Virus record (IMG/VR): IMGVR_UViG_2713896785_000022
Span: 1-23,668 of that record
Source: a virus
Taxonomy: Duplodnaviria > Heunggongvirae > Uroviricota > Caudoviricetes
DNA length: 23,668 bases
Strand: one strand, 5' to 3'
Part shown: positions 8,016 to 23,668 of the stretch, one piece after another
Position numbering within the stretch: the stretch's first letter is position 1
Layout of the letters: each line of letters starts with the position of its first letter
Program-made: the position numbers and the translations under genes
Notes under the pieces: generated by a model
Seen by the model: only the letters and a program-made list of their open reading frames with translations
Told to the model about the DNA's origin: nothing
Database searches by the model: none

Positions 8016-8425
8016 TGCGCGCTAAAAAGGAAATTGAAATCCAGTAACCCCAAATACCTTAGCTAAAAGAGCCTAAGGAATCTAACGCATTCAACTGTCA
8101 TAAAACATAATGTGTTACATAATGGAGATAGTGTGAAAACAACTGATATAGATCATAGAAGGCTTGGCTCCGTAAGACATCTAAGGTGTTATCTTAATCA
8201 ACTGCAGCAAAGGCATTCTGCCACTGTTAATGGAAACTTGTTTCGAATTGGATAACTTCAATGTTGCATCGTGTTTTACATATCTTGTTCAACTACAATA
8301 CATTGTTGCCTGCAAATTTAATTTTTTATTAGAATACTTGTAACTTAGTTCGCAGCATCAATTGTGTTTTTCAAACTTGATGTTAACTGATGATATGGAA
8401 CATTATTTGTTAGAAAGGTGATAAT

Positions 8426-10021
8426 GTGCAAGAACGGGATCTAGGAAGCATGGGCGAGGCATTATTTATGCAACTTTGCGCATCTGTTGGGTTAATATAC
8501 AACCCATCATTAAAAGACAGTGCTGGATGGGATTTCATTGTTGACTTCCCTACACAATTTTCAACTCACCCAATGATAGATAAAAGTGCATCCCCTATCG
8601 AGTGTAAAATTCAAGTCAAAGCAACTGATGGTACTTCAAAAAAAGTACAAATTACTTTATCAAATATGATGCGTTTATGCGGAAGTAAGCTCCCCGCTTT
8701 CTTTTTTTTCATTGAGTATAATAAAAGCAATACTCCACAAGCAGTTTATGTTAGACACTTTGATAAAAATCTAATGTTTAAAACATTACAAAGAGCCAGA
8801 GAAAACTCTATTTTAAAAGAACCCAAAAAACTGAACAAAATTAACATTACAGTATCATTTGACAGCCCCCATAAATTAGACGCAATAACAGGTGAACATT
8901 TAAAGTCTACAATTGAATCATACGTAAATGAAGGTATGGAAGTTTATACTGAAAAGAAAATAAATCACTTAAAAAATTTAGGTTATGAAAATGGAGGATA
9001 TAAATTAACTTTTCAGACAAAAGCGGAAGTTGAATACGATAATCTGATCAATGCGTCTCTTGGATGGGTTAATAAAGCGAAAGCTAGAAATATAAAGTGC
9101 TTTGACGAACGATTTAATATCTCTATGCCTCTTGAGAACAAGAGTTTTTCTGAAGCCGATTTATCGTTTGGGGTTGAAAATTTTGAAACAGATGCCATAT
9201 TGAAAATAACAAACATGACATCAAAAAAAACCATTCGCCTCGAATGTAAATTATATGTTAGTCCACTATCCATCAATGCTCCAGATAAGCATATCAAAGC
9301 AAGATTAAAATCCTCTTATTTCGACATTTTAATTTATCTTAAAACAGGACTCCTTACATATCGATTTGATTCATATGACAACATATTGAATCTATTTGAG
9401 ATCAAAGATAATTTAACCATCATGCGATGGATTTATGAACAGAAGGACATGCTGGAATTTGAAATAAATATTTCTAACAGTCATAACCCAATGACTTTAA
9501 TAACAAATGCCAATAAAGAACTAATACAAGACACCTCATTAATTGAAAGCTGTATTCAGGCATTAAATACAACAGAGAATGCTATTATTATATCTGACCG
9601 ATTAAGTATTCAGGGGCAAGTTAAGACAACTATTACAAAATTGGGTATACATAGTGATAATACTAACATAATTGGGCAATTACTAAGTAACCCAAATTAT
9701 TCCCCAGCAATGAAACTGACATCTAAGAATAAAATAAAATCACCCCCAAGTGAAATAAATGCATGTTGTTTAGCAGTTATCGCCACTAAACTAGGTGATT
9801 TTATAGTGCTTGTTATAATCACCATTAACGGAAAAGGAGTTTACTCTAAAAATGAATATCACCTGTCTAACCCCAGTATAAAATTAGAAGACATAATGTA
9901 TTGTTATCACAATGAAGATATCACAAAAAAATTAATAACAAAAACAAAATCAATAGCAGATAAACATATGAAAAGGGATGACATTGTCTTCATAAACTTA
10001 TTTCACGATGACAATAATTAG
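8426..10021 (+). CDS. Hotspot cargo gene: 531-aa protein with N-terminal DUF4365-like PD-(D/E)xK nuclease signature and unassigned C-terminal region; candidate anti-phage defence protein
   Basis: Long ORF in a strongly AT-rich segment between cos and int. GTG at 8426 (AAGGTG upstream) or ATG at 8450 (AGGAAG upstream). Motifs …KDSAGWDFIVDF… and …IECKIQVKATDG… fit the DUF4365 pattern. Followed by a strong terminator. Confidence 0.8.
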   Translation: MQERDLGSMGEALFMQLCASVGLIYNPSLKDSAGWDFIVDFPTQFSTHPMIDKSASPIECKIQVKATDGTSKKVQITLSNMMRLCGSKLPAFFFFIEYNKSNTPQAVYVRHFDKNLMFKTLQRARENSILKEPKKLNKINITVSFDSPHKLDAITGEHLKSTIESYVNEGMEVYTEKKINHLKNLGYENGGYKLTFQTKAEVEYDNLINASLGWVNKAKARNIKCFDERFNISMPLENKSFSEADLSFGVENFETDAILKITNMTSKKTIRLECKLYVSPLSINAPDKHIKARLKSSYFDILIYLKTGLLTYRFDSYDNILNLFEIKDNLTIMRWIYEQKDMLEFEINISNSHNPMTLITNANKELIQDTSLIESCIQALNTTENAIIISDRLSIQGQVKTTITKLGIHSDNTNIIGQLLSNPNYSPAMKLTSKNKIKSPPSEINACCLAVIATKLGDFIVLVIITINGKGVYSKNEYHLSNPSIKLEDIMYCYHNEDITKKLITKTKSIADKHMKRDDIVFINLFHDDNN

Positions 10022-10030
10022 TAATTTTCG

Positions 10031-10056
10031 AAGGGGCTAGCCCCTTTTCTTTTTTA
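10031..10056 (+). terminator. Rho-independent terminator after the hotspot gene
   Basis: Perfect palindrome AAGGGGCTAGCCCCTT followed by TTCTTTTTT, 10 nt after the stop codon. Confidence 0.7.
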
Positions 10057-10091
10057 TAAAAAATAAATACTAAAACTAAAAAACAATTATA

Positions 10092-11258
10092 TTAACTAAA
10101 AATATTATCTGAATACCATTGCATCATCACCTTTCGCTTTTCAAAATATTGGGCGTGATTATATGTTCCTCTTATAGAGTTTTTATCTACATGAGCAAGT
10201 TGCATTTCAATCCAAGCGGTATTAAAGCCATTTTCATGAAGAATTGTTGATAATGTATGCCTAAACCCATGTCCTGTAAGTTTTCCAGCATAGCCTATTC
10301 GTTTGATAAGTTGATTAACACTTGCCTCACTCATAGGTTTATTTGGATCATTCCGTCCAGGAAAAACATAACGATAATTTCCTGTCATAGATTTGAGTTC
10401 ATTAAGAAAGCCTAGCGCCTGCGTCGATAAGGGGACAAGGTGCGGCCTACGCATTTTCATTCTCTCAGCAGGAATTTCCCAAATAGCGTTATCTAGATCA
10501 AACTCTTGCCATAATGCTGCTCGTAACTCGATAGTTCTAACCCCCGTAACCATTAATAATTTTGTGGCAATCTGAACAAGTCGGCTTCCTGTATAACTAT
10601 CTAAAGCACGCAGAAAATCAGGTATCTCATCTGATTTTAAGAAAGGAAAATGATTTGATTTATGAACTTCAAGGGCACTGGACAGATCTGCCGCAGGATT
10701 AAACTCTGCTCTTCCAGTAGCAATGGCATATCGAAAAACCTCTGAGCAACGTTGCCGCACTTTGCGCATTTTCTCCAATGCACCACGCTTCTCAATTTTA
10801 CGCAGTACATTTAGCAATTCTAGCGGTTTAATTTCCCCTACAGGCCTCGCCCCCACATACGGAAAAATATCATTCTGGAACGCTTCAATAATATCTGAGG
10901 CATACCCAGCAGACCATTTTGCCGATTTCATCTGATGCCACTCTCTGGCAATCTTTTCGAATGCGTTCTCAGATTGAATTCTTAATGCTAGTTTTTGTTC
11001 TTTTCGAACCTCACTAGGATTTTTTCCCTCAGCCACTATTTTTCGTGCCTCATCACGGCGAGAACGAGCTTCAGCAAGTGTGATCGTTGGATAGACACCA
11101 AGCGAGATCATTTTAGGCTTACCTGCATAGCGGTAACGAAATCGCCAACTTTTACTTCCATTTGGCTCTACAAGTAAAGACAACCCTTGCCCATCCCCAA
11201 GTGTATAGGCTTTAGCTTCAGGTTTAGCACGGCGAATCTGCATATCATTTAGGGGCAT
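10092..11258 (-). CDS. int: P4-type tyrosine integrase (388 aa)
   Basis: N-terminal arm-binding domain typical of P4-family integrases (IRRAKPEAKAYTLGDGQGLSLLVEPNGSKSWRFRYRYAGKPKMISLGVYP), C-terminal catalytic region with …GHGFRHT… and …RGTYNH…; convergent with the cargo gene. Confidence 0.9.
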   Translation of the reverse strand: MPLNDMQIRRAKPEAKAYTLGDGQGLSLLVEPNGSKSWRFRYRYAGKPKMISLGVYPTITLAEARSRRDEARKIVAEGKNPSEVRKEQKLALRIQSENAFEKIAREWHQMKSAKWSAGYASDIIEAFQNDIFPYVGARPVGEIKPLELLNVLRKIEKRGALEKMRKVRQRCSEVFRYAIATGRAEFNPAADLSSALEVHKSNHFPFLKSDEIPDFLRALDSYTGSRLVQIATKLLMVTGVRTIELRAALWQEFDLDNAIWEIPAERMKMRRPHLVPLSTQALGFLNELKSMTGNYRYVFPGRNDPNKPMSEASVNQLIKRIGYAGKLTGHGFRHTLSTILHENGFNTAWIEMQLAHVDKNSIRGTYNHAQYFEKRKVMMQWYSDNIFS

Positions 11259-11583
11259 GTGTATAGAATTCCATAATCGAACAGGAACATATACATAATC
11301 CTATACACATTTAGTACTGGATTCCACTGGAAGGTTATGGACTAACATGGACAAAAAGAACAAAAAATCTTTTATAAAACAGTATGATTATGGATTAATA
11401 CGGATGTTTGAAGAAGTGGAGATGGTGCCGATAATAGGAGTAAAACACTCGATTAATCTCGTGTTAATGCCATCACCTACGACCATTACTAATTGATTGA
11501 ATCTTATAGAAAAATCATCATTTTCTATGCGTCACAATCAATTTTCACATTACAAACGCTCCGACACTTTAGCCGGAGATTTT

Positions 11584-12861
11584 ATGAGATACAAGCCTAA
11601 CCAATACTTAATCTGTGATTCTTACGGTAACTACTATTTAAGGATCACGCTGCCTGTGTATATGAAGCCCTTTTTTGAAGGAAAAAGGACGTTTGTCAGA
11701 AGTCTACATACAAGTAATCTTCGTGTGGCACGTAGAAAGCGTGATCAGATTGCAGATGAATACCATTGCTTACGGGAGAGTGTTGCCCCTGTAAACAGCA
11801 CAATAGAAAACACGCTGGAACTGTTACGCAGTAAGGCTAAATACGCCAAAACAGCTACCAGAGTGCAAGATACAGCGTCTTCGTGTCCGTCATTGCTTAA
11901 AATTCTTGAAATCTACCTGACAATTAACAGCACGAAGAAGAAGCCAGCCACTTTAGCTAAGGCAAGAAAAGCGGTAGAGATGTTTCTCTCCTACCGTAAA
12001 AAGCCTGATATTGCATTGCAAGATGTAAGCCGCACCACTGTTACAGGCTGGATTGAACACATGCAAAAAACTCTTTCACAACAATCAATTGCAAATTATA
12101 TCAGCCCAATGGCCCAGCTATGGGAATTAGCTTCATCACGTTACCACGATGCGCCAGAAAGGGCGCTCTCCCCCTGGCGAGGGCATAGGCTTGATGTGGC
12201 ACAAAGTAGAGAGAGCTACGAGGCATTTTCTAACAAAGAGCTATTGCAGGTGTTGCAAGTATTTTCCGGTAATTCAGCAGAAAACAAAGAAATGACGGCT
12301 TTGTGTCTTATCGGTTTATATACAGGTATGCGGATCAATGAGATAGCAAGTCTCACAATAGACGATGTGAAAGAGATCGAAGGTGTGCTGTGTTTTGAAA
12401 TCACACAGGGAAAAACGAAAGCTGCGGCACGTCTTGTGCCTGTGCATAGCCTTATCACTCCATTGGTGTTATCTCTTCGTGAAAAGCCTCACAATGGCTT
12501 TTTGTTCTATCACGCCAGCATTACAGAGCGTGCTGACGGTAAACGCTCTACGTGGCATACACAACGATTTACAAGAGCTAAACGAAAGGCTTTAGGGGAA
12601 AAGGGAACAGAAAGGAAAGTGTTTCATTCTCTGAGACACGGAGTAGCACAGCTTCTTGATCGAAATCAAATTCCAGAGGACCGCATAGCTTTAATGTTGG
12701 GCCATCAGCGCGGCAATACAGAAACATTCCGCACATATAGCAAGAATGCAGCTTCTCCAGTAGAGCTTAAAAAATATATTGAGCTTTTACGCTACCCTGA
12801 AATAGAGAAAGGCTTATCAATCAATAAAAAATCAAATTTAAGGCGTAAAACAACGCTATAG
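11584..12861 (+). CDS. Second tyrosine recombinase/integrase (about 425 aa; ORF could start at 11497)
   Basis: Catalytic signatures …GMRINEIASLT…, …HSLRHGVAQ…, …GHQRGNTETFRTYSK…; ATG at 11584 has a GGAGA RBS. Divergent from the P4-type int with ~325 bp between the two starts. Confidence 0.8.
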   Translation: MRYKPNQYLICDSYGNYYLRITLPVYMKPFFEGKRTFVRSLHTSNLRVARRKRDQIADEYHCLRESVAPVNSTIENTLELLRSKAKYAKTATRVQDTASSCPSLLKILEIYLTINSTKKKPATLAKARKAVEMFLSYRKKPDIALQDVSRTTVTGWIEHMQKTLSQQSIANYISPMAQLWELASSRYHDAPERALSPWRGHRLDVAQSRESYEAFSNKELLQVLQVFSGNSAENKEMTALCLIGLYTGMRINEIASLTIDDVKEIEGVLCFEITQGKTKAAARLVPVHSLITPLVLSLREKPHNGFLFYHASITERADGKRSTWHTQRFTRAKRKALGEKGTERKVFHSLRHGVAQLLDRNQIPEDRIALMLGHQRGNTETFRTYSKNAASPVELKKYIELLRYPEIEKGLSINKKSNLRRKTTL

Positions 12862-12941
12862 ACGTAATAAAGAGGCTTCAATATAGACTGATGCCTCTTT
12901 TATGATTATCTCGTTACAGAGCGTTTCATAGGCGTTTAAGG

Positions 12942-13619
12942 CTATTGTTTAAATACTGGCGTTACAACGTCTTGCCCTGGGCTTTTTTGATTTTTCTGTT
13001 CTGTTGTATTTACCTGCATTTTAACCTGTCCCCCTACAGATTTATTTGGTGCTGTTTTTACCGCAATTGCGCTTGTAGTTGCTTTAGAGACAAGACGGAT
13101 TTGCTCAAAATCAAGAGTAAACAATAGGCTTTCGCTTGCTTCTTCTTCATAAGACATGCCAACTAACACAACGTTGTCATAATTTTTTAACTCAGTGACA
13201 AGTAGGAAAGGTTGGCGACTGTCCATCAACTGATTTAGGTATTCAAGCATAAGCATACGTCGATTGCCGTTAATTCCCGCATTCTTAATCATATCGGGAT
13301 TGAGCTTCAATACGGTTTCAGAGATACGCCCTTGTAATGTGAACTTGTTATTCCGTATTTGAACATGATCACTAACTTCTGATCCTGATTCGACAGCATA
13401 GCTTGTAACGTCTGCATTTCTGCTAATTTTCGTCGATTCCACGCTATCAAATGATAATGCCTGGTAGTCATTGTAAGCAGCATTTGCACCACTGCCGAGG
13501 TTAGAGGCAATGATCGCAAAGCCGTTACCCCCTTTAGTTGTTCTACCGTTGCTATCGTTGCTTGTGCTGTTGATTTTCGCCTCAGTCGGGCGACCAATGG
13601 TTAACGGACCCATTGCCAT
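12942..13619 (-). CDS. Hypothetical protein (225 aa), possibly virion-associated
   Basis: Last gene of the leftward operon containing the capsid genes; AAGGA RBS; no recognisable motif. Confidence 0.55.
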   Translation of the reverse strand: MAMGPLTIGRPTEAKINSTSNDSNGRTTKGGNGFAIIASNLGSGANAAYNDYQALSFDSVESTKISRNADVTSYAVESGSEVSDHVQIRNNKFTLQGRISETVLKLNPDMIKNAGINGNRRMLMLEYLNQLMDSRQPFLLVTELKNYDNVVLVGMSYEEEASESLLFTLDFEQIRLVSKATTSAIAVKTAPNKSVGGQVKMQVNTTEQKNQKSPGQDVVTPVFKQ

Positions 13620-13666
13620 AATTTGTAATCCTTATTTAAGGGGGCTAAACAGCCCCACAGCGATGA

Positions 13667-15508
13667 TTAATAGGTTGACCCGCCTGACATAACACCCAGC
13701 GTTAATAGCTTGCTAAACTCAGCGGAGGATGCCTTTGATTTGAAGTCGATAAATTCGCTCAATCGTCCGGTGTCTGATTCGATAGTTAGCGGCACTTCTG
13801 CATTTACTTGTAATTCTGGATTGAAGTTAATAACAGGTGCAAAGGTGTAAGAAGGAGCCTTGAAAGCTTGTTGTGCTGCACTCTGTTTCAGATTTGCAAT
13901 GTTTTGTCCTTCGAGACTGTATTGATTTACAGCCTGCGCCCCACCTACCGTTTCTTCTGGCATAAACCAGCTTTTAATAGTGTTAACCAGGGAATTGCTG
14001 TTATCTGGCTTAATTGTTCCGGTGCCAGCGCCTTTATATTGATCAGGAGTGAGATTAGAAAGATTCTGCTTCATTCCTTCGTTAGATAGTGGCGGTGCAT
14101 CCCCTAAATTCTTTTGAATAGCTGCCGTCTTCTCGTCGTTTTTCATCAGCCAGTTGATTGCTTTCATTACAGCGTTAACCAATCCGCCGATAGCCTCGCC
14201 TAATTTGGTAAACATTGGCAGCATTGCAACCATGCTCTTTTTAAACTCTTCAATCACTTTCGGATCAAGAGATTTCATAAAGCCATCAACAAAGGCGATC
14301 CCTTGTGAGTCAGAAAGCCCACTAAGTGCATTATTCAGTTCACGGAATTTAATAACGCTTTCCTGTTGTGCCTGCGTTACCCAGCGCCCTGATTCTCGTT
14401 GTTCTCGTGCTGATTGTTCCACTTCTTTAGCGGAGCGTGTCCAGTATTTAGAGGTGAGCATCAAATCATCAGCCAGATCTTCCAGACGACTACCGATTTG
14501 TGCATCTGAATAGCCTTTAGCTACCATTCCCTGAACTGCTTTACTAACCAGACCAGCCGGATTATCAGCAAAGTCTTTTAGATCCTTTTTAGTTAGGAAT
14601 CCTTCATTCATTAAAGTATTGATGCCGCTATCGCCGCCCTTCCATTCTCCTTTACCAGTTTTCTTATCAACTACATATTCAGCCTCATCATAAGATTTAG
14701 TAGCCTTCTCCCGTACATCTTTCATCTGATCGAGATACTTACGTTTACCTTGATCCCCCATCATTGAATCAACGCCGTTTTTATACGCCCATTGCTCAAT
14801 ATTGTTCATCTGGTTAACGTCTACACCGCCCAGCTTCGCACGGCTATACAATTCTCCCAGCGTTTCAGCACTGGCAAAGCTGTTAGTAACAAATTCAGAG
14901 GCTTTGCTCATAGCCATATATGCAGCGCCAGCGCCTAAGCCACCCAGCATAACAGCCGCAGCACCGCCGCCAATACTCCCGCTACCCTTAACAGGTGCAT
15001 AGGCTTTAGCGTAAGCGTTACGATTGCCATTAATCTTACGTTGTTGCTGTTGTAGGCGTTTCATTTGGCTATTCATACGTGCCAGACTAATAGCGCCTCT
15101 TTCATATTGGAGGGCAATTTCTCTAGCCTGTGCAATAGCTTTATATTGTTCCGCTACAGAAAGACGGTGCATTGCACTAATGCTTGATCCAACGTCTAAA
15201 AGCTTTAATTCTGCCTTCTCTTTGCGTGCTGCCAGGGCTTTTTGTTCTCTTGCAACTACACGTTGAGCGGCTAATTGTGCTTTAGCATTAGCTTTATCAG
15301 CCTGTGCTTGCTTTTTAGCAATATCGTCTACGTCTTTTTTTGCTTTAGCGGTTGATTGTTTATGTGTCTTAACACGCAATTCTATATCTTTCACAGCCGC
15401 CATTTGTTTACGAAGTTTTTCTACTTCTGCTTTTGCTTTCTCTAATGATGGTCGATCAACCTGGAAGGTGACAACGTTTGATAAGCGGCTGACGGTAAGG
15501 TCTAACAT
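13667..15508 (-). CDS. 613-aa coiled-coil protein with a Gly/Ala-rich hydrophobic segment (scaffold-, tape-measure- or ejection-protein-like)
   Basis: N-terminal ~170 aa of Lys/Ala/Gln-rich heptad-like sequence, then GSGSIGGGAAAVMLGGLGAGAAYMAMS, then a long mixed region; same operon as the major capsid gene. Confidence 0.65.
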   Translation of the reverse strand: MLDLTVSRLSNVVTFQVDRPSLEKAKAEVEKLRKQMAAVKDIELRVKTHKQSTAKAKKDVDDIAKKQAQADKANAKAQLAAQRVVAREQKALAARKEKAELKLLDVGSSISAMHRLSVAEQYKAIAQAREIALQYERGAISLARMNSQMKRLQQQQRKINGNRNAYAKAYAPVKGSGSIGGGAAAVMLGGLGAGAAYMAMSKASEFVTNSFASAETLGELYSRAKLGGVDVNQMNNIEQWAYKNGVDSMMGDQGKRKYLDQMKDVREKATKSYDEAEYVVDKKTGKGEWKGGDSGINTLMNEGFLTKKDLKDFADNPAGLVSKAVQGMVAKGYSDAQIGSRLEDLADDLMLTSKYWTRSAKEVEQSAREQRESGRWVTQAQQESVIKFRELNNALSGLSDSQGIAFVDGFMKSLDPKVIEEFKKSMVAMLPMFTKLGEAIGGLVNAVMKAINWLMKNDEKTAAIQKNLGDAPPLSNEGMKQNLSNLTPDQYKGAGTGTIKPDNSNSLVNTIKSWFMPEETVGGAQAVNQYSLEGQNIANLKQSAAQQAFKAPSYTFAPVINFNPELQVNAEVPLTIESDTGRLSEFIDFKSKASSAEFSKLLTLGVMSGGSTY

Positions 15509-15542
15509 GCTAATTGTTTCCCTGTATTATGATTGTTGTTTA

Positions 15543-15740
15543 TTATTGTTTTTTAGAACAGTAGTATGTAATTGCTTCAAAAGTGCTGCACCCAGTCTGA
15601 AACACACGCTGCCGCACATTATTTGCATCAATTGAAAGCATTCTGCATAAGGCACTGACATTGATTATTGAGTCATCGCTAATAGCTGCCAGTTCTTTTA
15701 CAGATTTAAGAATTAATGCCTGTGAATTTTCTGTATTCAT
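15543..15740 (-). CDS. Small hypothetical protein (65 aa; ORF could extend to 15818)
   Basis: ATG at 15740 preceded by a GAGAGA-type RBS; lies between the capsid gene and the 613-aa gene. Confidence 0.4.
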   Translation of the reverse strand: MNTENSQALILKSVKELAAISDDSIINVSALCRMLSIDANNVRQRVFQTGCSTFEAITYYCSKKQ

Positions 15741-15894
15741 TGGTTTTCTCTCACATATATATATTTTTATTTGGGTTTGTAGACAGTAGAAAAACAAAAA
15801 GGGCAAGAGACAGCGCATATTTTGCTTATATGATTATCCCTTACCCTTATTGCCCCGATTATTTCCAGACGTAGGGGAACGTCTTTAACACTTT

Positions 15895-16923
15895 TTACGC
15901 TACTGTGATCTGCACAGAGAAGCCAACACCGTGGTTAACCACAAGCGAGCTATTCTCGGTCACTACGTGCACTGCGTCGCCGCGATTCGATTCGAAAGCA
16001 TAGCTGTAATACTCTTTAGCGCCTTGAGACAGCAGATCGAAGGAACTGGAAGGCGCGCCATAGATAGCTTGGTAAACACCTCCACCCTTAGCGAATTTAG
16101 GCACGGCTACAGCGTCAGCGGTCATATGTGCCAGCAGCAGCGGATCAGTCACTTTGATCAGATCAATGTTAGTTCCTGGAATGGTGAAAGTAGTTACGCC
16201 AGGCAGCAGAGAACGCACATTAAACACCACGTTTGCATCGTCTACAGGGCTTGCATATTGGAACGCATTGACCATGCCAACGCTGTAACGAATAGCGTTG
16301 AATGCCGCAGGTTTACAGAACACAACAACACGCTCAATGGTTGCAGCCTGGCTTTGTGCCTTAGCAATCATATCCGTATGCATCTGATCAAATTGCTTGA
16401 ATACGGTCATTGTGTTGGTGCTGGATGCGTCAACGGTTGCAGTCATTGGAGACACACCGAACAGAGTGCTGTAATCGATCAGAACATCGTCAGTTTTCGG
16501 GGTATGTGTCTTGCCAGAGAACAGAGAAGCCGCGAGGATGCTTTCTTTAGTGCGCTGGAATGCAACATTGTGTTTAGCGATATATTCCGCATACAGATCC
16601 GGCAGTGTTTCTTCAATAGAGCTTCCGGCTTTGCGTTTGCCTTGCACGTCCTGCGGTTTGATCAGGTCTTCACGCAGGAAGTAAGGGATTTCAATCAGCC
16701 ATTCTTCCCCGTTCTCACGCTTAGTAACGTTATGCTCAGAGCTAAAACGGCTTGTAGGATGGTTGAACAGAGATTCATTGCTCTCGATAAGCTGGGAAAC
16801 AGCCACTTTGTGACTTTCTACAGGCACAGGATCAGTAAAATCCAGAGTAGACAGTAGGTAATTGCGTGAGTCGTTTAATTCGAACAGTGGAGCAAGATCA
16901 ACCACTTCATTTCCGATAATCAT
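15895..16923 (-). CDS. Major capsid protein, lambda gpE-like (342 aa)
   Basis: Length matches lambda gpE (341 aa); C-terminus …GFSVQITVA resembles the gpE C-terminus as I recall it (…FVSVQLA); directly preceded by a ~118-aa gene in D-then-E order. Confidence 0.65.
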   Translation of the reverse strand: MIIGNEVVDLAPLFELNDSRNYLLSTLDFTDPVPVESHKVAVSQLIESNESLFNHPTSRFSSEHNVTKRENGEEWLIEIPYFLREDLIKPQDVQGKRKAGSSIEETLPDLYAEYIAKHNVAFQRTKESILAASLFSGKTHTPKTDDVLIDYSTLFGVSPMTATVDASSTNTMTVFKQFDQMHTDMIAKAQSQAATIERVVVFCKPAAFNAIRYSVGMVNAFQYASPVDDANVVFNVRSLLPGVTTFTIPGTNIDLIKVTDPLLLAHMTADAVAVPKFAKGGGVYQAIYGAPSSSFDLLSQGAKEYYSYAFESNRGDAVHVVTENSSLVVNHGVGFSVQITVA

Positions 16924-16939
16924 TATTATTTATTCCTTC

Positions 16940-17296
16940 TTAAGATGTGAAAACAGAGTGGAAGCCTTCAAGCTGGAAGCCTTTAGCAGCTTCTTTTACA
17001 GCGCCTTCGGCATTCAGGGCATCAGCTTTGATGCAAACGAGTCCGGCATTAGCACGAAGCACGTTAACTGTTTTATTTGAATCAGCAGTTACGAAGTCAG
17101 ACACAACGACAAGAACATCAGCGCCGCTAACATATTTAGCGCCGGATGAATCAATGAGGTCGCCGCACGTTACATCTTGTGCAAGTGCTGCAAATTTTTT
17201 GCTTTCTACAGCCGCGTAAGGGTCGGTTGCATAGCTCACTACGTCAGTGATGCTTTTACGATGTGGGAAAACATCGCTTAATTTTAAAATAGCCAT
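16940..17296 (-). CDS. Head decoration protein-like (118 aa)
   Basis: Size and position immediately upstream of the major capsid gene, as for lambda gpD; strong AAGGA RBS; the call rests on context, not sequence similarity. Confidence 0.45.
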   Translation of the reverse strand: MAILKLSDVFPHRKSITDVVSYATDPYAAVESKKFAALAQDVTCGDLIDSSGAKYVSGADVLVVVSDFVTADSNKTVNVLRANAGLVCIKADALNAEGAVKEAAKGFQLEGFHSVFTS

Positions 17297-17505
17297 TATT
17301 TTTCCTTAGATTGTTTGATTTGTTGAGCTTTAGCATTAATCAAATCTTGGTGAGATGGTTTATTGCTTTCAGCCTTATAAAGACGTTCACACTGTTTCTT
17401 TAATTCTGTGGGAGTGATGCCAAGCGCGTAGGCTGTAGCATTCAACACATCTTCAGTTAGTGTTAACTTTTCATTGCCATATTTCAGGATAATTTCTTGT
17501 TTCAT
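17296..17505 (-). CDS. Small hypothetical protein (69 aa), first gene of the capsid operon
   Basis: Stop overlaps the start of the decoration-like gene (TAATG), suggesting translational coupling. Confidence 0.5.
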   Translation of the reverse strand: MKQEIILKYGNEKLTLTEDVLNATAYALGITPTELKKQCERLYKAESNKPSHQDLINAKAQQIKQSKEK

Positions 17506-18497
17506 TTATATAACGATTCCATTATGTTGGAATTTAATAAATCCCCCAGGCTATAAGAGGTTCAATCTGACAATAGCGAGGGGGATTTATTAACGTGTCG
17601 GGCAATACACAGCGATAAGTAAAACCTTGAGGAGGTTTTAAACGTATCTCTAAGAATGCTTATTAAACATGCTTAAAGATAGGTTTAAAGGGTGAACAGA
17701 TATTCCTGAAAACATGCTCTTAGGAAAACATGCGGAATCAATCAGGAATATCTATTCGGGGCGCGGTGGCTAACCGCTATCTTTCATGGTGTGGATGCAC
17801 CAGTCAGATTTTAAGGAATCACTGTTCCAATCTACTCACAGATTAAATTTTAATAGGGATTAACTACACCAACAGTAATCTACCGTTTCAGAAAAAGCTT
17901 TTTTACAACCAAAGATTATAGATTTGCAGTCTATAAAACCCGTTTTGCTATCAATATTTCCAAAGGTTATTGCACAATTCTTAGCTAAACTCTCTCTGCT
18001 TGCGGCTAACGCTATGCAGATGATTGTTTTTGACAACAACTTAATAGATTATTCTGTTACTAACTTCTGTCATTAAATAAGAGTTTAATGATGTTAGTAA
18101 ATAGTTATAAAATATAACTATCAGTGTAAGGCTCTTTAATGTTTTCGGACAAAATAAGGAGCTTTAGGATAAGCATAGATGAAAATAAGAGCGGGAAGGG
18201 CAAGGAGATAACACCTACCCGCTTTTATCAAAAATTAAGCACAATGCCTAACAACATTCATCAACACAACGTAGAAACAATCAACAATCAAAGAGGGAGT
18301 TATGATTATTCTAAAACTTCTTGAGGGGATGGAAGGTAATATTTGTTAGAGGTTAATGCCACTCAACCTTTGAGGCTATCACCTTCCATATGCAGGGATT
18401 TATGACAGTAGAAGGATTAACACCAGTCAAAACCTTTTTATCTACCCCTAATATTATTATATAATGAAATCGTTATAAATGCAAATGATTTTCATTA

Positions 18498-18806
18498 TCA
18501 TTTAGAGAAAATAGCACTTTTTGCTAAATCATCTACTAATTGCTGAATCTCTTCACTTGCAGCCTTTAACGTGCTGGCGGTGTCTGTGATGGTTTGAGTG
18601 CACATCTTGGCATCGTCCTCAATTAGCTCTAAATCGCTCACCAGAGAGATAAAATCGTCAAGGCTTACATTCACCTTCATTAAGCTAATAACGCATTGAG
18701 AGAGCGTGTAATCGCATAAATCTGAATAGGCTTGATTTATTCTTGTTTGTAGTGAGATAGTCAGATCTAAAAGTTGTTCCATTGCATTGCTAATATCTTC
18801 TTCCAT
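18498..18806 (-). CDS. Small acidic hypothetical protein (102 aa)
   Basis: ORF in the leftward small-gene cluster; Asp/Glu-rich; start overlaps the stop of the upstream gene. Confidence 0.5.
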   Translation of the reverse strand: MEEDISNAMEQLLDLTISLQTRINQAYSDLCDYTLSQCVISLMKVNVSLDDFISLVSDLELIEDDAKMCTQTITDTASTLKAASEEIQQLVDDLAKSAIFSK

Positions 18807-19009
18807 TATGCGGCTTCTCCTTGTAATGCATCATTAATCATATTCAATACGATGTTAAAAGGTGTCTTGAGCGTCAGCACTTCATCACGGTAACGCTCTA
18901 ATGCTTCGTAGTCTTCTGTTTCTTTTGCCAGCCGAATTAACTCTGCATAGTTTTTTGCATCAGACAGGATCATCTGAAATAATTGTGTTTCTTGAATATA
19001 GCCAATCAT
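18806..19009 (-). CDS. Small hypothetical protein (67 aa; ORF could extend to 19051)
   Basis: ATG at 19009 has an AAGGA RBS; stop overlaps the start of the downstream gene (ATGA). Confidence 0.45.
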   Translation of the reverse strand: MIGYIQETQLFQMILSDAKNYAELIRLAKETEDYEALERYRDEVLTLKTPFNIVLNMINDALQGEAA

Positions 19010-19066
19010 TATTTTTCCTTTTTTGAATATTTTCATTGGGCGCTTATACATACACCCATCATTTTA

Positions 19067-19450
19067 TTAGTTAGAACGTTTGTTAGAAGCTAATGTATCT
19101 TCTAAATGAGCCATCAGATCGACTTCCGATGCACCACCTACACAATTATTGAAAGCGTTAAATCCCAAAAAATGATGATAGGAGCTAAACCCTAAAAGCT
19201 GCCAACGTTTCAGAGTGCCATCAGAAATGATAGTTTGTTTTCTTGTTCTTGGGCGAAAGTAAACGCCTGGCATTGATTGGATTATTTCTAATTCTTCATC
19301 ACTTAATTCAGGGGATTCTGTTTCAAGAATAAAGATTATCTCTTCCCCTGGAATTTCGTTATTGGTATGTGTCGGTGGACGTTGTCTTGTTGAATTGAAA
19401 TTACTGTTTTTTTCAATACGTTTTAAGTTGTTCTTTTTCTTTCTTCCCAT
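19067..19450 (-). CDS. Hypothetical protein with basic N-terminus (127 aa)
   Basis: ORF in the same cluster; N-terminal MGRKKKNNLKR… lysine/arginine-rich stretch. Confidence 0.5.
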   Translation of the reverse strand: MGRKKKNNLKRIEKNSNFNSTRQRPPTHTNNEIPGEEIIFILETESPELSDEELEIIQSMPGVYFRPRTRKQTIISDGTLKRWQLLGFSSYHHFLGFNAFNNCVGGASEVDLMAHLEDTLASNKRSN

Positions 19451-19546
19451 TTTCCCTCTTTTTATGTGGATTATAAAAACTGAATGCCATAGTTACGATG
19501 AATATCGCCATAAATGCATTTGCCATATGTATTGCCCGATCTGTTG

Positions 19547-19816
19547 TTATTGATTGTTTGTGATAAACAATTCAAAATCTTTGTTTAATTTCAAAAGACG
19601 AAATGTAGTGCTGTTAATCCCTTCATAATCCAGCACACCGAACGATGTAAAATGGTTTAACCAATGATTCACGTGTTGTGCGCTGTAGCCGCCTAAACTA
19701 CAAAAGCTAACCACTGTCGGGGGTGAGAACTCTATGTCCAAAATAGATTTTAAAATGTTGTATCCGCTCTCAGTTATTTCAATAGTTTTGTTTCCTATAG
19801 TGATGTTATAAGCCAT
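19547..19816 (-). CDS. Hypothetical protein (89 aa)
   Basis: ORF in the same cluster and orientation, 10 bp downstream of the 208-aa gene. Confidence 0.5.
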   Translation of the reverse strand: MAYNITIGNKTIEITESGYNILKSILDIEFSPPTVVSFCSLGGYSAQHVNHWLNHFTSFGVLDYEGINSTTFRLLKLNKDFELFITNNQ

Positions 19817-19825
19817 TTATTCTCC

Positions 19826-20452
19826 TTAAAAGGGTAGTGAATCATATATTGTGCTCTCACTTTTGAGATCAATTATCAAAGAGTCAAAATCATTTTCACA
19901 AAGATAGATATTCTTTGAATCTAATGCTCGTTTTACAAAATCTTCTGTTTCTTCGTGCGGTGGTTTCTTCTTATCAAGGGAAAGAAGCCAAGTAAAAATT
20001 TCGGGCCGCTCAGGGAACTCTGATTCCTGTTTTTCTTCTTCAACGATGATTTCTGAAACATTCAATATTTCATTAGATTCGTTTTCTTTCTCAGAAGGAT
20101 CAGGTAGTGATGACTCTCCTGGGGGAGTAATATGTGCATCTGTGAGAGGGAGAGCATTGTAAATCAAAGATGAAATATACGGATCAGGATGTGGGGATGT
20201 TTCTAATAATCCCATCTCTTTAAGATCGTTTATCTTACGTTTAATTGTTGATGGTGAAGACTTAAAAATCTTAGCTAATGTTTCGTGACTTTCATAACAA
20301 TTAAGACCATTTTCCTGATAACTAAGAAATCTATAATAAAGAACAATGTGCAATAAATCTAAAACCTTACCTTCTGGAAATTCATTAGAGTAAATCTTTG
20401 ATATATTATCAAACGTGTTATAGTGTTTTGTAAAAGTTGGCTGGTTTATCAT
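19826..20452 (-). CDS. Winged-helix DNA-binding protein with acidic C-terminal half (208 aa); putative replication initiator or regulator
   Basis: N-terminal …CYESHETLAKIFKSSPSTIKRKINDLKEMGLLE… resembles winged-helix motifs of replication-organizer and regulator proteins; C-terminal half is Glu/Asp/Ser-rich. Confidence 0.55.
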   Translation of the reverse strand: MINQPTFTKHYNTFDNISKIYSNEFPEGKVLDLLHIVLYYRFLSYQENGLNCYESHETLAKIFKSSPSTIKRKINDLKEMGLLETSPHPDPYISSLIYNALPLTDAHITPPGESSLPDPSEKENESNEILNVSEIIVEEEKQESEFPERPEIFTWLLSLDKKKPPHEETEDFVKRALDSKNIYLCENDFDSLIIDLKSESTIYDSLPF

Positions 20453-20503
20453 TAAAAATCTCCTTATAAATCACGCTTAATGCGCTACTAAAGTGAATGA
20501 GGA

Positions 20504-20671
20504 TCACTTACCCTTTTTTTGTTTGATGTTCTCTGCTGCTTCAGTAATGATTTCTAACATCAAATCACTGACCATAATTTGCCTTTTCTTGGCTTCAGCA
20601 AATAAAATCTTGAAAATTTCAGGGTCAACGTGTAGGTAAGTGCGTGGAATTGGTTTCTTGGTTTCGCTCAT
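20504..20671 (-). CDS. Ribbon-helix-helix (CopG/Arc-like) small DNA-binding protein (55 aa)
   Basis: Not in the ORF track (<60 aa). ATG at 20671 with AGGAGAAGGAGA RBS; MSETKKPIPRTYLHVDPEIFKILFAEAKKRQIMVSDLMLEIITEAAENIKQKKGK has the beta-strand plus two helices typical of RHH regulators and antitoxins. Confidence 0.5.
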   Translation of the reverse strand: MSETKKPIPRTYLHVDPEIFKILFAEAKKRQIMVSDLMLEIITEAAENIKQKKGK

Positions 20672-20692
20672 AGTTTTCTCCTTCTCCTGTTA

Positions 20693-20875
20693 TTATTCTT
20701 TCTCTGCTTCTGCCTTACGCAGTTCATCAATAATTTTTAGTGCATCGTCAAAGCATTTTTCACGCTCTGGATAACCACAACGGCGAGCGGTGTTTCTATA
20801 CATCCTTACTTTAAAGCGGTTGATCTCACCACGTTTCCAGGCTTCTACTACATCCTGTGGAGTGAAATATTTCAT
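20693..20875 (-). CDS. Small hypothetical protein (60 aa), first gene of the leftward small-gene operon
   Basis: ORF directly upstream of the RHH gene; downstream of a ~1.5-kb repeat-rich non-coding region. Confidence 0.45.
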   Translation of the reverse strand: MKYFTPQDVVEAWKRGEINRFKVRMYRNTARRCGYPEREKCFDDALKIIDELRKAEAEKE

Positions 20876-21336
20876 TAATTAACCTCCTATTCTATTTGGT
20901 TAAAAGAAAAAGACACCTTGCAAGCCTTGGGCTTCAAAGTGCGGTGCATTGGTTTAATTATTTAGAGGATAAGAATCTATTCCTGTCCCTCTAATACCTA
21001 TTATTGCACAGAAAGAGACGTTTGTCAATACCCTTTTCGCAAAAAAAATCGATCTTTTTCAGCATGTTATAATTTGTCTTAGCAATTCGTGCTCTTACGA
21101 GTACTCCTATTCTTCCTTATTCTCTAAAACGCTCTAAAATGCGTTCTAACGAGGTTTTGATAAAAACAATACATTCCCTTATGTAGAGGCTGTTTAGCTC
21201 GCCAGAGGCTTATTTAAGGGGTAGAATCTCATCTACTACCTAACATCTTTAAACCATATTTTTCTTTTTTGTCTGTTTGATGGTTGATCTATAGTTATGC
21301 GTTAGCATCCCCAAAGGGGTAACGCTACTCTAATTG

Positions 21337-21359
21337 CATTCGCCAGAACATTGCACAAG
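21337..21359. repeat. Left arm of a 23-bp inverted repeat (CATTCGCCAGAACATTGCACAAG); a related direct partial copy lies near 21450-21479
   Basis: Reverse complement matches 21687..21709 with one mismatch. Confidence 0.6.
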
Positions 21360-21686
21360 AAATTTATTTTAGATGATTGATGATCGTTAGATTGGCGTAA
21401 GCCTCATCAATGGAACTATTGAAGCGCACAGCGCATAGACACTAACAACCATTCGCTTACGCTCAGGTTATTGCACAAGTAAATTTCAATCGTTAGATGG
21501 TAGTTAGTTAATTATCGTTCTGCGCACAGCGCAAGACTATTTAGCCTTACGCAAGCCGTAGGCTATTTGCACATAGTAGATTACATATTCGTTGTGAGCG
21601 GCATTAGCGAACATAGATCTACTAACTAACATCAACAAACAAAAAACTATGTGTTATGACAAGCAGTCTAACGACTAACACTCTAA

Positions 21687-21709
21687 CTTGTGCAAGGTTC
21701 TGGCGAATG
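21687..21709. repeat. Right arm of the 23-bp inverted repeat (CTTGTGCAAGGTTCTGGCGAATG)
   Basis: 22/23 match to the reverse complement of 21337..21359; the arms are ~330 bp apart and ~700 bp upstream of the serine recombinase gene. Confidence 0.6.
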
Positions 21710-21851
21710 CCAATAGATTAAAGGATAGTCGTTAGACTCCCTAACGGGTATCCCTATAATTATTCTTATAAAGATAAAAAAGAATTATATTATATAGTTT
21801 AATAGTTAGTTTTATTATTAGTATTATCGTTAGTCTTATTGTGGTTCAAAT

Positions 21852-21906
21852 TGACCTACCCCCCTAGCTCACAGTGACCTACCCCCCTAGCTCACAGTGA
21901 CCTACC
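21852..21906. repeat. Tandem 23-bp iteron-like direct repeats (TGACCTACCCCCCTAGCTCACAG, about 2.4 copies)
   Basis: Two perfect 23-bp units (21852-21874, 21875-21897) plus a 9-bp partial third, in an AT-rich non-coding stretch. Confidence 0.7.
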
Positions 21907-22407
21907 GTTACATCCATTTATCACATAACATCTGTGCAATGATCTTCTAAAAGTGTTTCTTGCTACCAAAATTAAACATCTAAAACAGGCTTAAATTCAA
22001 GATTAATTGATGATTAATCCTTATGTAATTCCTACGTAAAAATTCAATGAAAAGTAGCTTAAAAGTGCAATGTTAGCTTTCTTCACTTTTACATCACTTT
22101 CGCTGCGCCTTGTGTAATGCGGCATATAGCGCATCACTGCAAAATTGTTGCTCAATAAACGTTCTATCATTTGTCGAACAAGTTTCTTTAATGCAACAAA
22201 AAATTATTTTTTCAAAATAAACACACTATTTAATAGCTTGCTAATTTTACCAAAACGTAACTACATGATTCTCATGCAAGACGTGTAGTGATAAAGCAGG
22301 CTAAATCACCACACTAAAAACCTTCGAATTTCGTAGTGAAAAAAGTCCTTTACACACCTAATCAACACGATCAATAATCACTACACACAAATCAACACAG
22401 AAGGAAA

Positions 22408-22965
22408 ATGAAAATGGCTAATATTGGATACATTAGGGTATCGACTGTCCAACAAAACACAGACCGTCAATTAGCTGGAGTAACTCTTGATAAAGTCTTT
22501 GAAGATAAAGCGTCAGGCAAGAATACCCAGCGCCCACAGTTTGAGGCAATGATGAACTATGTGCGGGAAGGTGATGTTTTGCATGTTCACAGCATTGATC
22601 GACTTTGCCGTAATACAGCCGACCTACTGGCAACGGTTGAGCAATTAACAGAGCGCGGCGTGTCTGTGCATTTCCATAAAGAAGACTTTAAGACAGGGAA
22701 GAACTCTCCCGCAGGGAATATGATGCTCACAGTGCTTGCAGCAGTGGCACAAATGGAACGTGAAATGATGCTTGAGCGGCAGCGTGAGGGGATCGCCGCA
22801 GCTAAGGCCGCTGGACGTATAGCAAAACGTGGTAATGGAAAAGCAATTGATCGAGCGGGAATTGTTGCCGCTCTCGCGAATGGTGGATCAATTCGGAGCG
22901 TAGCAAAAGATTTCAGTGTCAGCACACAGACGGTGCAACGTATCAAGAAAGAGCAGGAAGCGTAA
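22408..22965 (+). CDS. Serine recombinase (resolvase/invertase family, about 185 aa; likely start at 22414)
   Basis: N-terminal catalytic motif MANIGYIRVSTVQQNTDRQ with the active-site Ser context, C-terminal HTH (…SIRSVAKDFSVSTQTVQRIKK…); AGGA RBS upstream. Confidence 0.85.
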   Translation: MKMANIGYIRVSTVQQNTDRQLAGVTLDKVFEDKASGKNTQRPQFEAMMNYVREGDVLHVHSIDRLCRNTADLLATVEQLTERGVSVHFHKEDFKTGKNSPAGNMMLTVLAAVAQMEREMMLERQREGIAAAKAAGRIAKRGNGKAIDRAGIVAALANGGSIRSVAKDFSVSTQTVQRIKKEQEA

Positions 22966-23290
22966 TGCCTCCTGATATTTCAGAATTGTCGCCGCGTGGA
23001 CCTGACGGCGCTGATCTTCGCGTTAAACATTGATCACGTTTGCGCCGATTTCAGATAAAAAGGCAGCTATTAAGCAATACGTAACTTTTACAATTAGTGA
23101 AATTATCTAAAACACAAGTTATATAGATGAGAAAATGAAATATTATCTTGAACAAATCAAACAAAACAACACATCATCTTGTTGACACCATGCAAAGTGA
23201 ATAGTAAGCTATTATATGTGAAAATTTGCACATTGCATGCAATAAAAAATAAATGATACCTTGTTGTTGTTAAATCAATAGGGGGTATCT

Positions 23291-23449: not shown

Positions 23450-23515
23450 TAATTTCACTATCAGGCGCACAAACACATCTTTGATTGCTGGATGTGTTAT
23501 GCGCCTACTGGTGAT

Positions 23516-23668
23516 TCAATCCTTAAGCCATTTCAACTCACTAAGGAGTTTTCTTTCTTCGTTCTCTCGCTGTTTACGCTCTAGCCAGGCTTTTCCCTCT
23601 GGCGTAGACAGGAACTTACGAGCGTGAATCTTGCGGTTATTACGTTTTATAGCTGCAATGTTTTTCAT
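23516..23668 (-). CDS. Small basic protein (50 aa); start codon is the last 3 nt of the window
   Basis: Not in the ORF track. MKNIAAIKRNNRKIHARKFLSTPEGKAWLERKQRENEERKLLSELKWLKD; upstream region is outside the window, so RBS and promoter are unseen. Confidence 0.35.
   Translation of the reverse strand: MKNIAAIKRNNRKIHARKFLSTPEGKAWLERKQRENEERKLLSELKWLKD

Follow-up and report, generated by a model that had tools for sequence, protein, structure and literature searches.

The DNA examined here (the window) comprises 23,668 nucleotides, positions 1 to 23,668 of the IMG/VR virus record IMGVR_UViG_2713896785_000022, and contains most of an integrated island of Escherichia coli that is probably a satellite, or a parasitic island, dependent on virulent myoviruses of the Stephanstirmvirinae. 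Flanks of 13 kb on each side were read from the chromosome of E. coli 2013C-3264 (NZ_CP027544.1), in which the window corresponds to positions 4143779-4167444 on the reverse strand. The island is bounded by two 19-bp attachment (att) repeats, TGGTGCCGATAATAGGAGT: the distal copy (11422..11440) is identical to the 3' end of the tRNA-Thr gene thrW, and that 3' end is itself the second copy (window-equivalent 24299-24317, just past the right window edge). Exactly two copies are present in the 49.7-kb locus, where none is expected by chance, and the island measures 12,877 bp between them, from 11422 to thrW. Its components are arranged as follows: an integrase gene, a structural operon, a hairpin and about 1 kb without long open reading frames (ORFs), a leftward set of seven small genes, 1.5 kb of non-coding DNA with iterons, a resolvase gene and more non-coding DNA. 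The integrase gene (11583..12860, + strand, also a RefSeq CDS) encodes a tyrosine recombinase with DUF6538, SAM-like and Phage_integrase domains (PF00589, 2.8e-17; PF20172, 1.5e-8; phrog_1) and is convergent with the structural operon. The distal att repeat lies between this gene and a neighbouring P4-type integrase gene.

To the right of the window, the flank contains only a 0.6-kb spacer, thrW, proA and proB; on the left, a P4-like satellite is followed by a LysR fragment and then by paoD-A. No portal, protease or terminase gene was found in the window or in either flank, and no neck, sheath, tube, baseplate-wedge or scaffold gene was found in the island or flanks with Pfam and PHROGs. An earlier annotation made from the letters alone (the sequence-only reading) had reported that the window lacks portal, protease and terminase genes, which was borne out, and had advised looking past the right window edge for portal and terminase genes. 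Portal, terminase and tail genes such as those of an ordinary prophage are not there: an ordinary prophage extending past the window was ruled out by thrW/proAB on one side and by the P4-like satellite and paoD on the other. The island therefore has two general properties of a satellite: it is a separate integrative element that brings a recombinase and att sites of its own, and the full set of virion and packaging genes is absent from it and its flanks (Pfam, PHROGs), so that a helper would be needed.

The structural operon consists of six leftward ORFs converging on the integrase gene, as previously described. Its first gene (17296-17505, - strand) encodes a 69-aa protein, which had no family match in Pfam or PHROGs and whose position is conserved across the island variants. 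The third gene (15895-16923, - strand) encodes a 342-aa HK97-fold major capsid protein (MCP) of the lambda gpE family. The protein matched Phage_cap_E (PF03864) over essentially its full length and above the gathering score (residues 19-341, E 3.4e-18, 66.2 bits against a cut-off of 22.9 bits), was 25% identical over its full length to gp114 of phage phAPEC8 and matched the solved MCP of phage phi92, gp124 (PDB 21uy_N, E 4e-9); the proposal of a gpE-like capsid protein made from the sequence alone was upheld by these matches. Between the two, the gene for a 118-aa protein (16940-17296, - strand) occupies the position of the head-decoration gene of the putative helper phages, and the gene pair formed by the 118-aa protein and the MCP is syntenic with phAPEC8 gp115-gp114. 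A profile of the 118-aa family matched three solved head-decoration proteins weakly (E 0.045-0.55), decoration proteins being its sole matches. An AlphaFold2 (AF2) model built with 23 homologues (pLDDT 50) had decoration chains as its top Foldseek matches at E values that were not significant (E >= 0.07), and a single-sequence AF2 model (pLDDT 35) was unusable. No similarity to phAPEC8 gp115 was found by BLASTP, and hhalign of the family was also negative. From position and profile, the 118-aa protein is probably a decoration protein.

The MCP gene is not the same in all islands. In the CT30 island (locus L003, 13955-14986) the MCP allele is only 18% identical to the window MCP, and islands with a CT30-type MCP are about 96-97% identical to the window island in the integrase, tube initiator and tape measure genes; the pattern suggests that the whole capsid protein gene was exchanged for another allele.

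The remaining three genes of the operon belong to the tail side. The 613-aa protein (13667-15508, - strand) is a homologue of tape measure proteins (TMPs): it matched phrog_16051, 'tail length tape measure protein' (E 1.2e-30), aligned from residue 1 with phAPEC8 gp104 (MLDLTVSRLSNVVTFQVD / MLEINASKISNVVTFKVD) and matched phi92 gp134 in the solved tail (PDB 21vq_V, E 4.4e-20), and its gene keeps a conserved place beside that of the tube initiator. It is 613 aa long, against 659-662 aa in the helper phages. The 225-aa protein (12942-13619, - strand) is a tail-tube initiator, that is, a Dit-like baseplate protein. It matched Dit_like (PF21821) above the gathering score (E 1.6e-27, 96.5 bits against a cut-off of 24.2 bits), was 53% identical to the tube-initiator protein of phAPEC8-type phages and phi92, and matched solved tube initiators: phi92 gp135 (PDB 21vq_N, E 2.5e-54) and the 'tube initiator' chains 9cuy_K (E 3e-10) and 7yfz_a. 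Directly upstream of the TMP gene, a 65-aa protein is encoded at 15543-15740 (- strand; 65 aa in RefSeq, 91 aa as the longest ORF). It had no family match in Pfam or PHROGs and no BLASTP similarity to phAPEC8 gp105, and a gene of 62-64 aa is present at this position in all the island variants examined.

The annotation of the six proteins with hidden Markov models and structures, which the sequence-only reading had recommended, thus identified an MCP, a TMP and a tube initiator, and it changed the description of the operon. The operon had been described as a capsid module in a window without recognisable tail genes; it consists instead of two syntenic blocks, the decoration-like protein with the MCP and the small protein with the TMP and tube initiator. 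The 613-aa protein had been compared with Sid, as a speculation, and proposed as a possible scaffold or capsid-remodelling factor; an identity as a Sid-like scaffold was ruled out by the full-length homology to TMPs (phrog_16051, phAPEC8 gp104, phi92 gp134).

Phage relatives were sought in a comparison set of 50,697 phage genome records. The MCP, TMP and tube initiator matched essentially only virulent Stephanstirmvirinae myoviruses and their rV5/PAK_P1-like relatives, with identities of 25% over the full length (MCP), 24-30% (TMP) and 53% (tube initiator). The gene order in phAPEC8 is terminase, portal, gp117, gp116, decoration gp115, MCP gp114, an interval of about 5 kb with neck, sheath, tube and chaperone genes, gp105, TMP gp104 and gp103. 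The island keeps two syntenic blocks of this module (gp115-gp114 and gp105-gp104-gp103) and nothing else of it. The relatives are virulent myoviruses of 145-150 kb, and no temperate phage was present in the match lists, which makes a reduced lambdoid prophage untenable. A defective lambdoid prophage was likewise ruled out: no lambdoid regulatory, lysis or tail genes were found (Pfam, PHROGs), and the relatives are virulent. The lambdoid framing of the sequence-only reading gave way to phages of the phi92/phAPEC8 type as the closest relatives, and its 'heavily reduced prophage' does not fit structural genes whose homologues are in virulent myoviruses, which do not form lysogens. Part of the island DNA is, in addition, near-identical to that of the virulent phages inny and muut, and islands and virulent phages must therefore meet in the same cells. 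The shared segment is a gene for a 55-aa protein (20504..20671, - strand), which with its flanks is 96-98% identical in DNA to these two Justusliebigvirus phages; the protein is 98% identical to inny_185. The island att site was not found in phage-encoded tRNA-Thr.

The 55-aa gene belongs to a leftward early/regulatory cluster, the first gene of which encodes a 60-aa protein (20693..20875, - strand) conserved in the CT30 and TUM17543 islands. Downstream of the 55-aa gene lies that of a 208-aa winged-helix protein (19826..20452, - strand), a putative replication initiator with matches to HTH_36 and to seven 'replication initiation' PHROGs (best E 1.2e-7). A putative replication origin was recognised by repeat analysis as three tandem 23-bp iterons (TCAcAgTGACCTACC...) at 21846..21914. 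In the CT30 island the initiator allele is another one, and the corresponding place (L003 19499-19637) holds five TAACAGnnTTCTGT repeats unlike those of the window; they are about 24 nt long, and the first three are spaced 23 bp apart. The iteron sequence covaries with the initiator allele between the two islands, as is consistent with a module of initiator and origin. The non-coding DNA immediately to the left of the iterons contains an inverted repeat of 34 nt, 88% complementary, with its arms (21326-21359 and 21687-21720) separated by 327 nt.

Parts of this module were also found in phages. In QNJ49226.1 of phage Mt1B1_P17 (328 aa), residues 1-105 are 99% identical to the N-terminus of the 189-aa winged-helix protein of the CT30 island, and are followed by a second winged-helix (wHTH) domain and a C-terminal endonuclease domain (phrog_681 'endonuclease', E 2.4e-18; Pfam MUG113/T5orf172 at or just under the threshold). 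Phage inny has a protein of the same architecture, inny_184, the first winged-helix domain of which is 36% identical to the 208-aa protein of the window; the gene directly upstream is the one 98% identical to the island 55-aa protein, so that the island gene order is preserved. Among the 50,697 genomes, inny was the sole phage with a homologue of the window 208-aa protein, and the full-length chimera was present in six phage records, all of Stephanstirmvirinae. By itself, the nuclease part is similar to (homing) endonucleases from T5-like, jumbo and rV5-like phages. The architecture, a satellite initiator DNA-binding domain joined to a nuclease, is that of Odn of the Vibrio phage ICP1, in which a copy of the DNA-binding domain of RepA of the satellite PLE (42% identity) is fused to a T5orf172/GIY-YIG nuclease and which destroys PLE through cuts in the iterons of the PLE origin (PMC8263062). 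Predicted chimeric nucleases of this Odn-like kind, with DNA-binding domains apparently derived from islands, were identified in Mt1B1_P17, BI-EHEC, inny and muut. The way in which the chimera is built, and its direction, suggest a defence of the phages against the islands.

A further link between islands and phages is a putative packaging (pac) or terminase-cleavage site, TGATATTT-N37-TTCGCGTT|AAAC (22971..23030, + strand; predicted cut between 23024 and 23025), whose homologue in Phapecoctavirus genomes is the inner boundary of the left direct terminal repeat. In a sensitive DNA search with the right half of the island, an 83-bp non-coding stretch (22969-23051) was 80% identical to non-coding sequence in about 60 Phapecoctavirus genomes (E 3e-10), and a 27-nt core of it was identical to the phages save for one variable base. 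In many of these records the match lies 270-360 nt from the record end. The records of BI-EHEC and WPEC4 have exact 328-bp terminal direct repeats, and the island-like stretch corresponds to phage positions 273-357, straddling the inner end of the left repeat (328/329). Stephanstirmvirinae genomes end in direct terminal repeats (PMC12695924), and for one Justusliebigvirus phage a direct terminal repeat (DTR) of 342 bp was determined by PhageTerm (PMC12210895).

CT30-type islands are without the Phapecoctavirus-like version; the same place holds a stretch 96% identical to phi92 positions 318-363, within which the left terminal repeat of phi92 (DTR-L, annotated 1-343) ends. In all four aligned sequences, TGATATTT is followed after 37-38 nt by TCGCGTTAAGCAC, with the repeat boundary inside this second box, giving the general motif TGATATTT-N37/38-TCGCGTT|AAGCAC. 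The boundary reads ...TTCGCGTT|AAGCAC in BI-EHEC and WPEC4 and ...TCGCGTTA|AGCAC in phi92, and the other repeat boundary of the phage, ...ATCGCGTAGCGATATGTTG|AGCACC, is a related signal. The bipartite motif was present in nearly every E. coli copy retrieved, always on one strand relative to the MCP gene and with two spacer types: a search with the pac core and the Phapecoctavirus spacer missed the CT30-type and TUM17543-type islands, which carry the phi92-type spacer. Diverged versions were found in Klebsiella and Buttiauxella islands. The simplest reading is that the motif would be the cut site of the helper terminase, of which the islands carry copies matched to the helper genus for packaging; it amounts to a testable prediction of the Stephanstirmvirinae terminase cleavage site. 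In locus L014 (around position 4196, - strand) a recombinant pac-like motif was observed, with the phi92-type spacer and a 3' half of the Phapecoctavirus-island type (GATCTTCGCGTTAAACATTG), which suggests recombination within the motif.

The module of capsid and tail genes was detected in 577 of 5,426 complete E. coli genomes, with identities from above 99% down to about 72%. In the CT30 and TUM17543 copies the thrW site and the gene order are as in the window, and the island lies between thrW and the vat toxin gene. MCP homologues with 39-61% identity are located on chromosomes of Cronobacter, Klebsiella, Citrobacter, Enterobacter, Dryocola and Serratia, and the MCP family spans seven genera. 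A common core is shared by Klebsiella, Serratia, Buttiauxella and metagenomic loci (proteins of about 66 and 120 aa, MCP, a protein of about 63 aa, a TMP of 616-629 aa and a convergent integrase), and the synteny is unchanged in copies with 73% nucleotide identity and in those with MCPs 59% and 39% identical (Escherichia, Buttiauxella, Klebsiella, Serratia). Klebsiella and Serratia islands likewise have an integrase in this place, and DUF6538 was detected in that of Klebsiella. In the 17 complete copies with the same boundaries, the length from att to att was 12,032-13,213 bp (median 12,504), a narrow range such as a constraint on capsid size would produce. Ratios of non-synonymous to synonymous substitution (dN/dS) between the window and TUM17543 copies, with synonymous sites near saturation, were 0.15 (MCP), 0.20 (TMP), 0.14 (118-aa protein) and 0.20 (69-aa protein), indicating purifying selection; the pairings made for the integrase and some of those for the Dit-like protein were spurious and do not enter into this comparison. 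Judged by these comparisons, the islands are a maintained family and not debris. As to the individual loci, Klebsiella (L033/L034) and Serratia (L035) islands have a short second ORF with a Phage_integrase domain (183-205 aa) at the far end from the main integrase, and the Klebsiella islands also encode a Dam methylase. A 9.4-kb contig labelled 'Bacillota bacterium MAG' (L030, JAEWTL010000083.1) contains the E. coli island in a version 98% identical to it, most likely as a result of binning contamination.

The island is therefore read as a Stephanstirmvirinae-dependent satellite or parasitic island, which we consider probable, and phi92-like Justusliebigvirus and phAPEC8-like Phapecoctavirus are the best explanation for its putative helpers. 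The choice of a capsid-encoding satellite over an ordinary prophage, which the sequence-only reading had raised, was strengthened, in that the element is bounded by att sites, conserved across genera, under purifying selection and without portal, terminase and protease genes. The proposed sequence of events is as follows. Infection by the helper would trigger excision of the island and its replication from the iteron origin. Small heads for a genome of about 12.5 kb would be formed by the island MCP on the portal and scaffold of the helper, probably with the 118-aa protein as a stabiliser, and the island TMP and tube initiator would seed tails for which the helper provides baseplate, tube and sheath. 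The terminase of the helper would cut the TGATATTT...TCGCGTT|AAGCAC site (in the island TTCGCGTT|AAAC, 23024/23025) and package the island DNA. Phage resources would be diverted in this way and the helper yield would drop; such a diversion would explain an Odn-like phage nuclease with the DNA-binding domain of an island initiator. A satellite could have its own TMP and tube initiator for several possible reasons: to make satellite-specific tails, to interfere with helper tail assembly or to match the ejection machinery. We hold more tentatively, and as doubtful, that the island could be the first satellite to re-tool both virion ends of a virulent helper, with its own MCP for a small head, its own TMP and tube initiator and a genus-matched DTR cleavage signal; the particle tails would then be of a different length or specificity, set by the satellite. 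We know of no described satellite that substitutes tail length or the tail core.

Several observations weigh against dependence on these helpers. All the evidence is comparative sequence analysis. The MCP is just 25% identical to the helper MCPs, and its compatibility with the helper portal and scaffold is for that reason an assumption. The MCP allele of CT30, a widespread island type, had no phage match at E <= 1e-5. Klebsiella and Serratia islands are without the tube initiator, which was found in the Escherichia/Buttiauxella type, and the family can thus do without it. The region around the pac-like motif is variable, and in the window island the motif abuts a resolvase gene that other copies lack; it was not found, at the thresholds used, in L015, L016 or the Serratia island, and a second DTR-boundary-like site was not found in the island, against two related boundaries in the phage. 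Among the island proteins, Pfam and PHROGs revealed neither an excisionase nor a recognisable regulator for sensing a helper. Finally, no free, circular or terminus-bounded copy was found among IMG/VR and metagenome contigs: all copies were integrated, and the contigs of about 12.5 kb were integrated copies with both att sites.

Three other explanations were considered alongside a Stephanstirmvirinae-dependent satellite. The island might be an inert, decaying remnant of a prophage, lambdoid or other, that has lost its portal, terminase and most tail genes. An incomplete virion gene set beside an integrase gene, a frameshift in the neighbouring P4-type integrase and the position at thrW, a known hotspot for composite islands (PMC7545054), would agree with decay. 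The relatives of the structural genes are, however, strictly virulent myoviruses of 145-150 kb, the reduced gene set, its order and its size recur at 39-74% MCP identity across genera, the reading frames are intact (dN/dS 0.14-0.20), and a conserved cis site matches a phage genome end; the conservation and selection data already contradict a remnant, to which we give next to no credence. A narrower alternative concerns the motif: the similarity to the DTR boundary could reflect a shared regulatory element (a promoter, a terminator or a site for a host factor), or could have arrived with the resolvase cassette, with no part in packaging, the island being mobilised otherwise or not at all. This would suit the location of the phage motif in a non-coding region upstream of early genes and that of the window motif directly after the resolvase gene, inside a variable segment. 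It is nevertheless very unlikely: CT30-type and TUM17543-type islands have the motif without the resolvase, and in three phages, which belong to two genera, the deposited or annotated repeat boundaries lie in the best-conserved box and differ by no more than 1 nt. A cleavage signal also fits better than a promoter because the other phage repeat boundary carries a related sequence (...ATCGCGT...|AGCAC).

The main alternative is a defence island that is not packaged, in which the diverged MCP, TMP and tube initiator would act as dominant-negative 'poison subunits', joining the phage proteins in assembly and ruining the virions, and the copy of the DTR boundary as a decoy for the terminase. [quoted passage not shown] Nevertheless, the element has an integrase, att sites and an initiator with its iterons and varies very little in size, all hallmarks of a moving element constrained by a capsid, and genus-specific variants of the pac-like site are easier to explain by packaging than by decoying. 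PADLOC models gave no credible match to the island proteins or to a 531-aa cargo protein of the P4-like neighbour, the sole match being that of the resolvase to a CARF model (E 0.009). A pure defence island is unlikely on balance; the two readings are not mutually exclusive, since interference and satellite transfer are compatible and PLE, P4 and SaPIs do both.

Among known systems, the closest in function is PLE with its helper ICP1. PLE uses an external scaffold (TcaP) and a serine recombinase and is not known to encode capsid or tail proteins. Like PLE, which lives at the expense of a large virulent myovirus, the element is a small integrative island and would be a parasite of such phages; an iteron origin with an allele-specific initiator and an Odn-type chimera in the helper (here QNJ49226.1 and inny_184) are further points of likeness. 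No sequence homology between the systems was detected, and the resemblance is functional only; unlike PLE, the island has genes for an MCP, a TMP and a tube initiator, has a tyrosine recombinase as its integrase, is located at a tRNA gene and has an initiator of the HTH_36 type. The PLE gene set (RepA_N initiator, TcaP, serine recombinase integrase) was not found in the island, which is accordingly not a PLE. According to Boyd et al., the small capsids of PLE are made from ICP1 coat proteins that it hijacks.

With the capsid-forming PICIs (cf-PICIs) of Enterobacterales the island shares an HK97-fold capsid protein of its own, the other virion parts being supplied by the helper. In cf-PICIs the genes for head formation and packaging are complete (portal, protease, head-tail adaptors and small terminase, TerS), and only tails are borrowed, from temperate helpers. 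The island is not a cf-PICI because portal, protease, adaptors and TerS were all undetected in it with Pfam and PHROGs, which showed only an MCP beside the possible decoration gene; it has in addition two tail genes, and its relatives are virulent. P4-like satellites resemble it in their integration at tRNA genes, a decoration protein (Psu), the redirection of capsid size of a myovirus helper and the shared thrW hotspot, but P4 uses the external scaffold Sid on the helper MCP, replication by the alpha primase-helicase and the cos sites of P2. None of the P4 markers looked for (psu, delta, sid, alpha primase-helicase, epsilon) was found in the island; such markers are in the neighbouring element (999-11258). 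In satellites of the SaPIbov5 type, Ccm is a diverged HK97-fold MCP homologue encoded by the satellite, which redirects capsid size and co-assembles with the helper MCP; SaPIbov5 differs in its Gram-positive host and temperate siphovirus helper. The four family definitions of SatelliteFinder would not be expected to capture the gene set of the island.

The same locus is that of the thrW pathogenicity islands (PAIs) of extraintestinal and avian pathogenic E. coli (ExPEC and APEC), namely VAT-PAI and PAI-APECO1-thrW (20 kb, 41% GC), which carry vat/tsh (PMC7545054). Their descriptions concern the toxin cargo, and in the literature searched the phage-like half was not read as a satellite. Since the CT30 and TUM17543 copies lie between thrW and vat, these 20-kb PAIs most likely include the island. 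A literature search for satellites linked to Phapecoctavirus, Justusliebigvirus, Stephanstirmvirinae, phi92, phAPEC8 or rV5 returned nothing relevant, subscription journals being outside the search. The best reading is a new satellite family rather than a decayed lambdoid prophage. If this is true, a new family would be present in about one in ten complete genomes of the best-studied bacterium and in other Enterobacterales, the known satellite repertoire would be extended to an own MCP with tape measure and tube initiator, and the arms race of PLE and ICP1 in Vibrio would have a tractable equivalent in E. coli, including an Odn-like chimeric nuclease that evolved independently. Phages of the phi92/phAPEC8 type are widely isolated for phage therapy and biocontrol, and an island by which they are hijacked or blocked would affect host range and therapeutic efficacy. 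The island could also move adjacent cargo, and it is a neighbour of the vat toxin gene in ExPEC/APEC.

The other features of the island were as follows. A hairpin with 21-bp arms (90% complementary), followed by a T-rich run, was located by inverted-repeat search at 17534..17593 (- strand), about 30 nt upstream of the first ATG of the structural operon; a terminator-like site (17560-17543) falls within it, and the hairpin is a possible transcription-control point. A 17-nt inverted repeat, ATAATGgAATCGTTATA, has its arms at 17509-17525 and 18461-18477, and the segment of 935 bp that they enclose, upstream of the operon, is poor in ORFs. The ATG of the 69-aa gene directly adjoins one arm, and the other is overlapped by a sigma-70-like promoter (TTTGCA-18-TATAAT); the segment could be a long leader, a non-coding RNA or an invertible segment. 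ATAATGgAATCGTTATA was rejected as a phage late-promoter motif, as it was not found upstream of phage structural genes. Four small leftward genes (18498..19816, - strand; ORF calls and RefSeq) encode proteins of 102, 81/67, 127 and 89 aa, which had no significant match in Pfam, PHROGs or PADLOC and are candidate regulators or interference factors.

The gene for a serine recombinase (resolvase/DNA invertase; 22408..22965, + strand; PF00239, 1.1e-38; phrog_125) is variable cargo. It is absent from CT30-type and TUM17543-type islands, and window positions 22187-23403 have no counterpart in loci L003 (CT30) and L004. The cassette is thus a variable insert (22187-23403), and its end falls exactly at the start of the pac-like motif. 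At the position of the insert, CT30 carries unrelated sequence that includes a 183-aa hypothetical protein on the other strand. A 50-aa ORF at the tRNA-proximal end (23516..23668, - strand) has the same accession, WP_000788776.1, in the CT30 island. No tRNA gene was found in the window, and Rfam gave no match at 11000-23668 (E <= 0.1).

The P4-like satellite that precedes the island (window 999-11258) looks complete and is in tandem with it at the distal att repeat; its genes encode the alpha primase-helicase, DUF5375, a derepression protein, an icd-like product, a helix-turn-helix (HTH) protein, ogr/delta, psu and the P4-type integrase (frameshifted in RefSeq). One tRNA hotspot, thrW, thus holds two unrelated satellites. 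Between psu and int of the P4-like element lies a 531-aa ORF (8426-10021) with a GC content of about 0.31, against 0.55-0.62 for the remainder; it had no Pfam, PHROG or PADLOC match. The psu-int interval is the usual spot for defence cargo in P4-like satellites. At the far-left junction of the element, window positions 1-411 contain a LysR-family fragment, annotated without its N-terminus; a third att repeat was not found there, and the left boundary of the tandem array is degraded.

A last observation concerns phage WPEC4, in which a conserved element of about 54 nt (core GTAGGGCGGCAATGGTGCCGC) occurs four times between small early genes (L010, 6425-9580). The element is probably a repeated promoter or terminator element, and its likeness to the core of the island att site (ATGGTGCCG) is probably coincidental.

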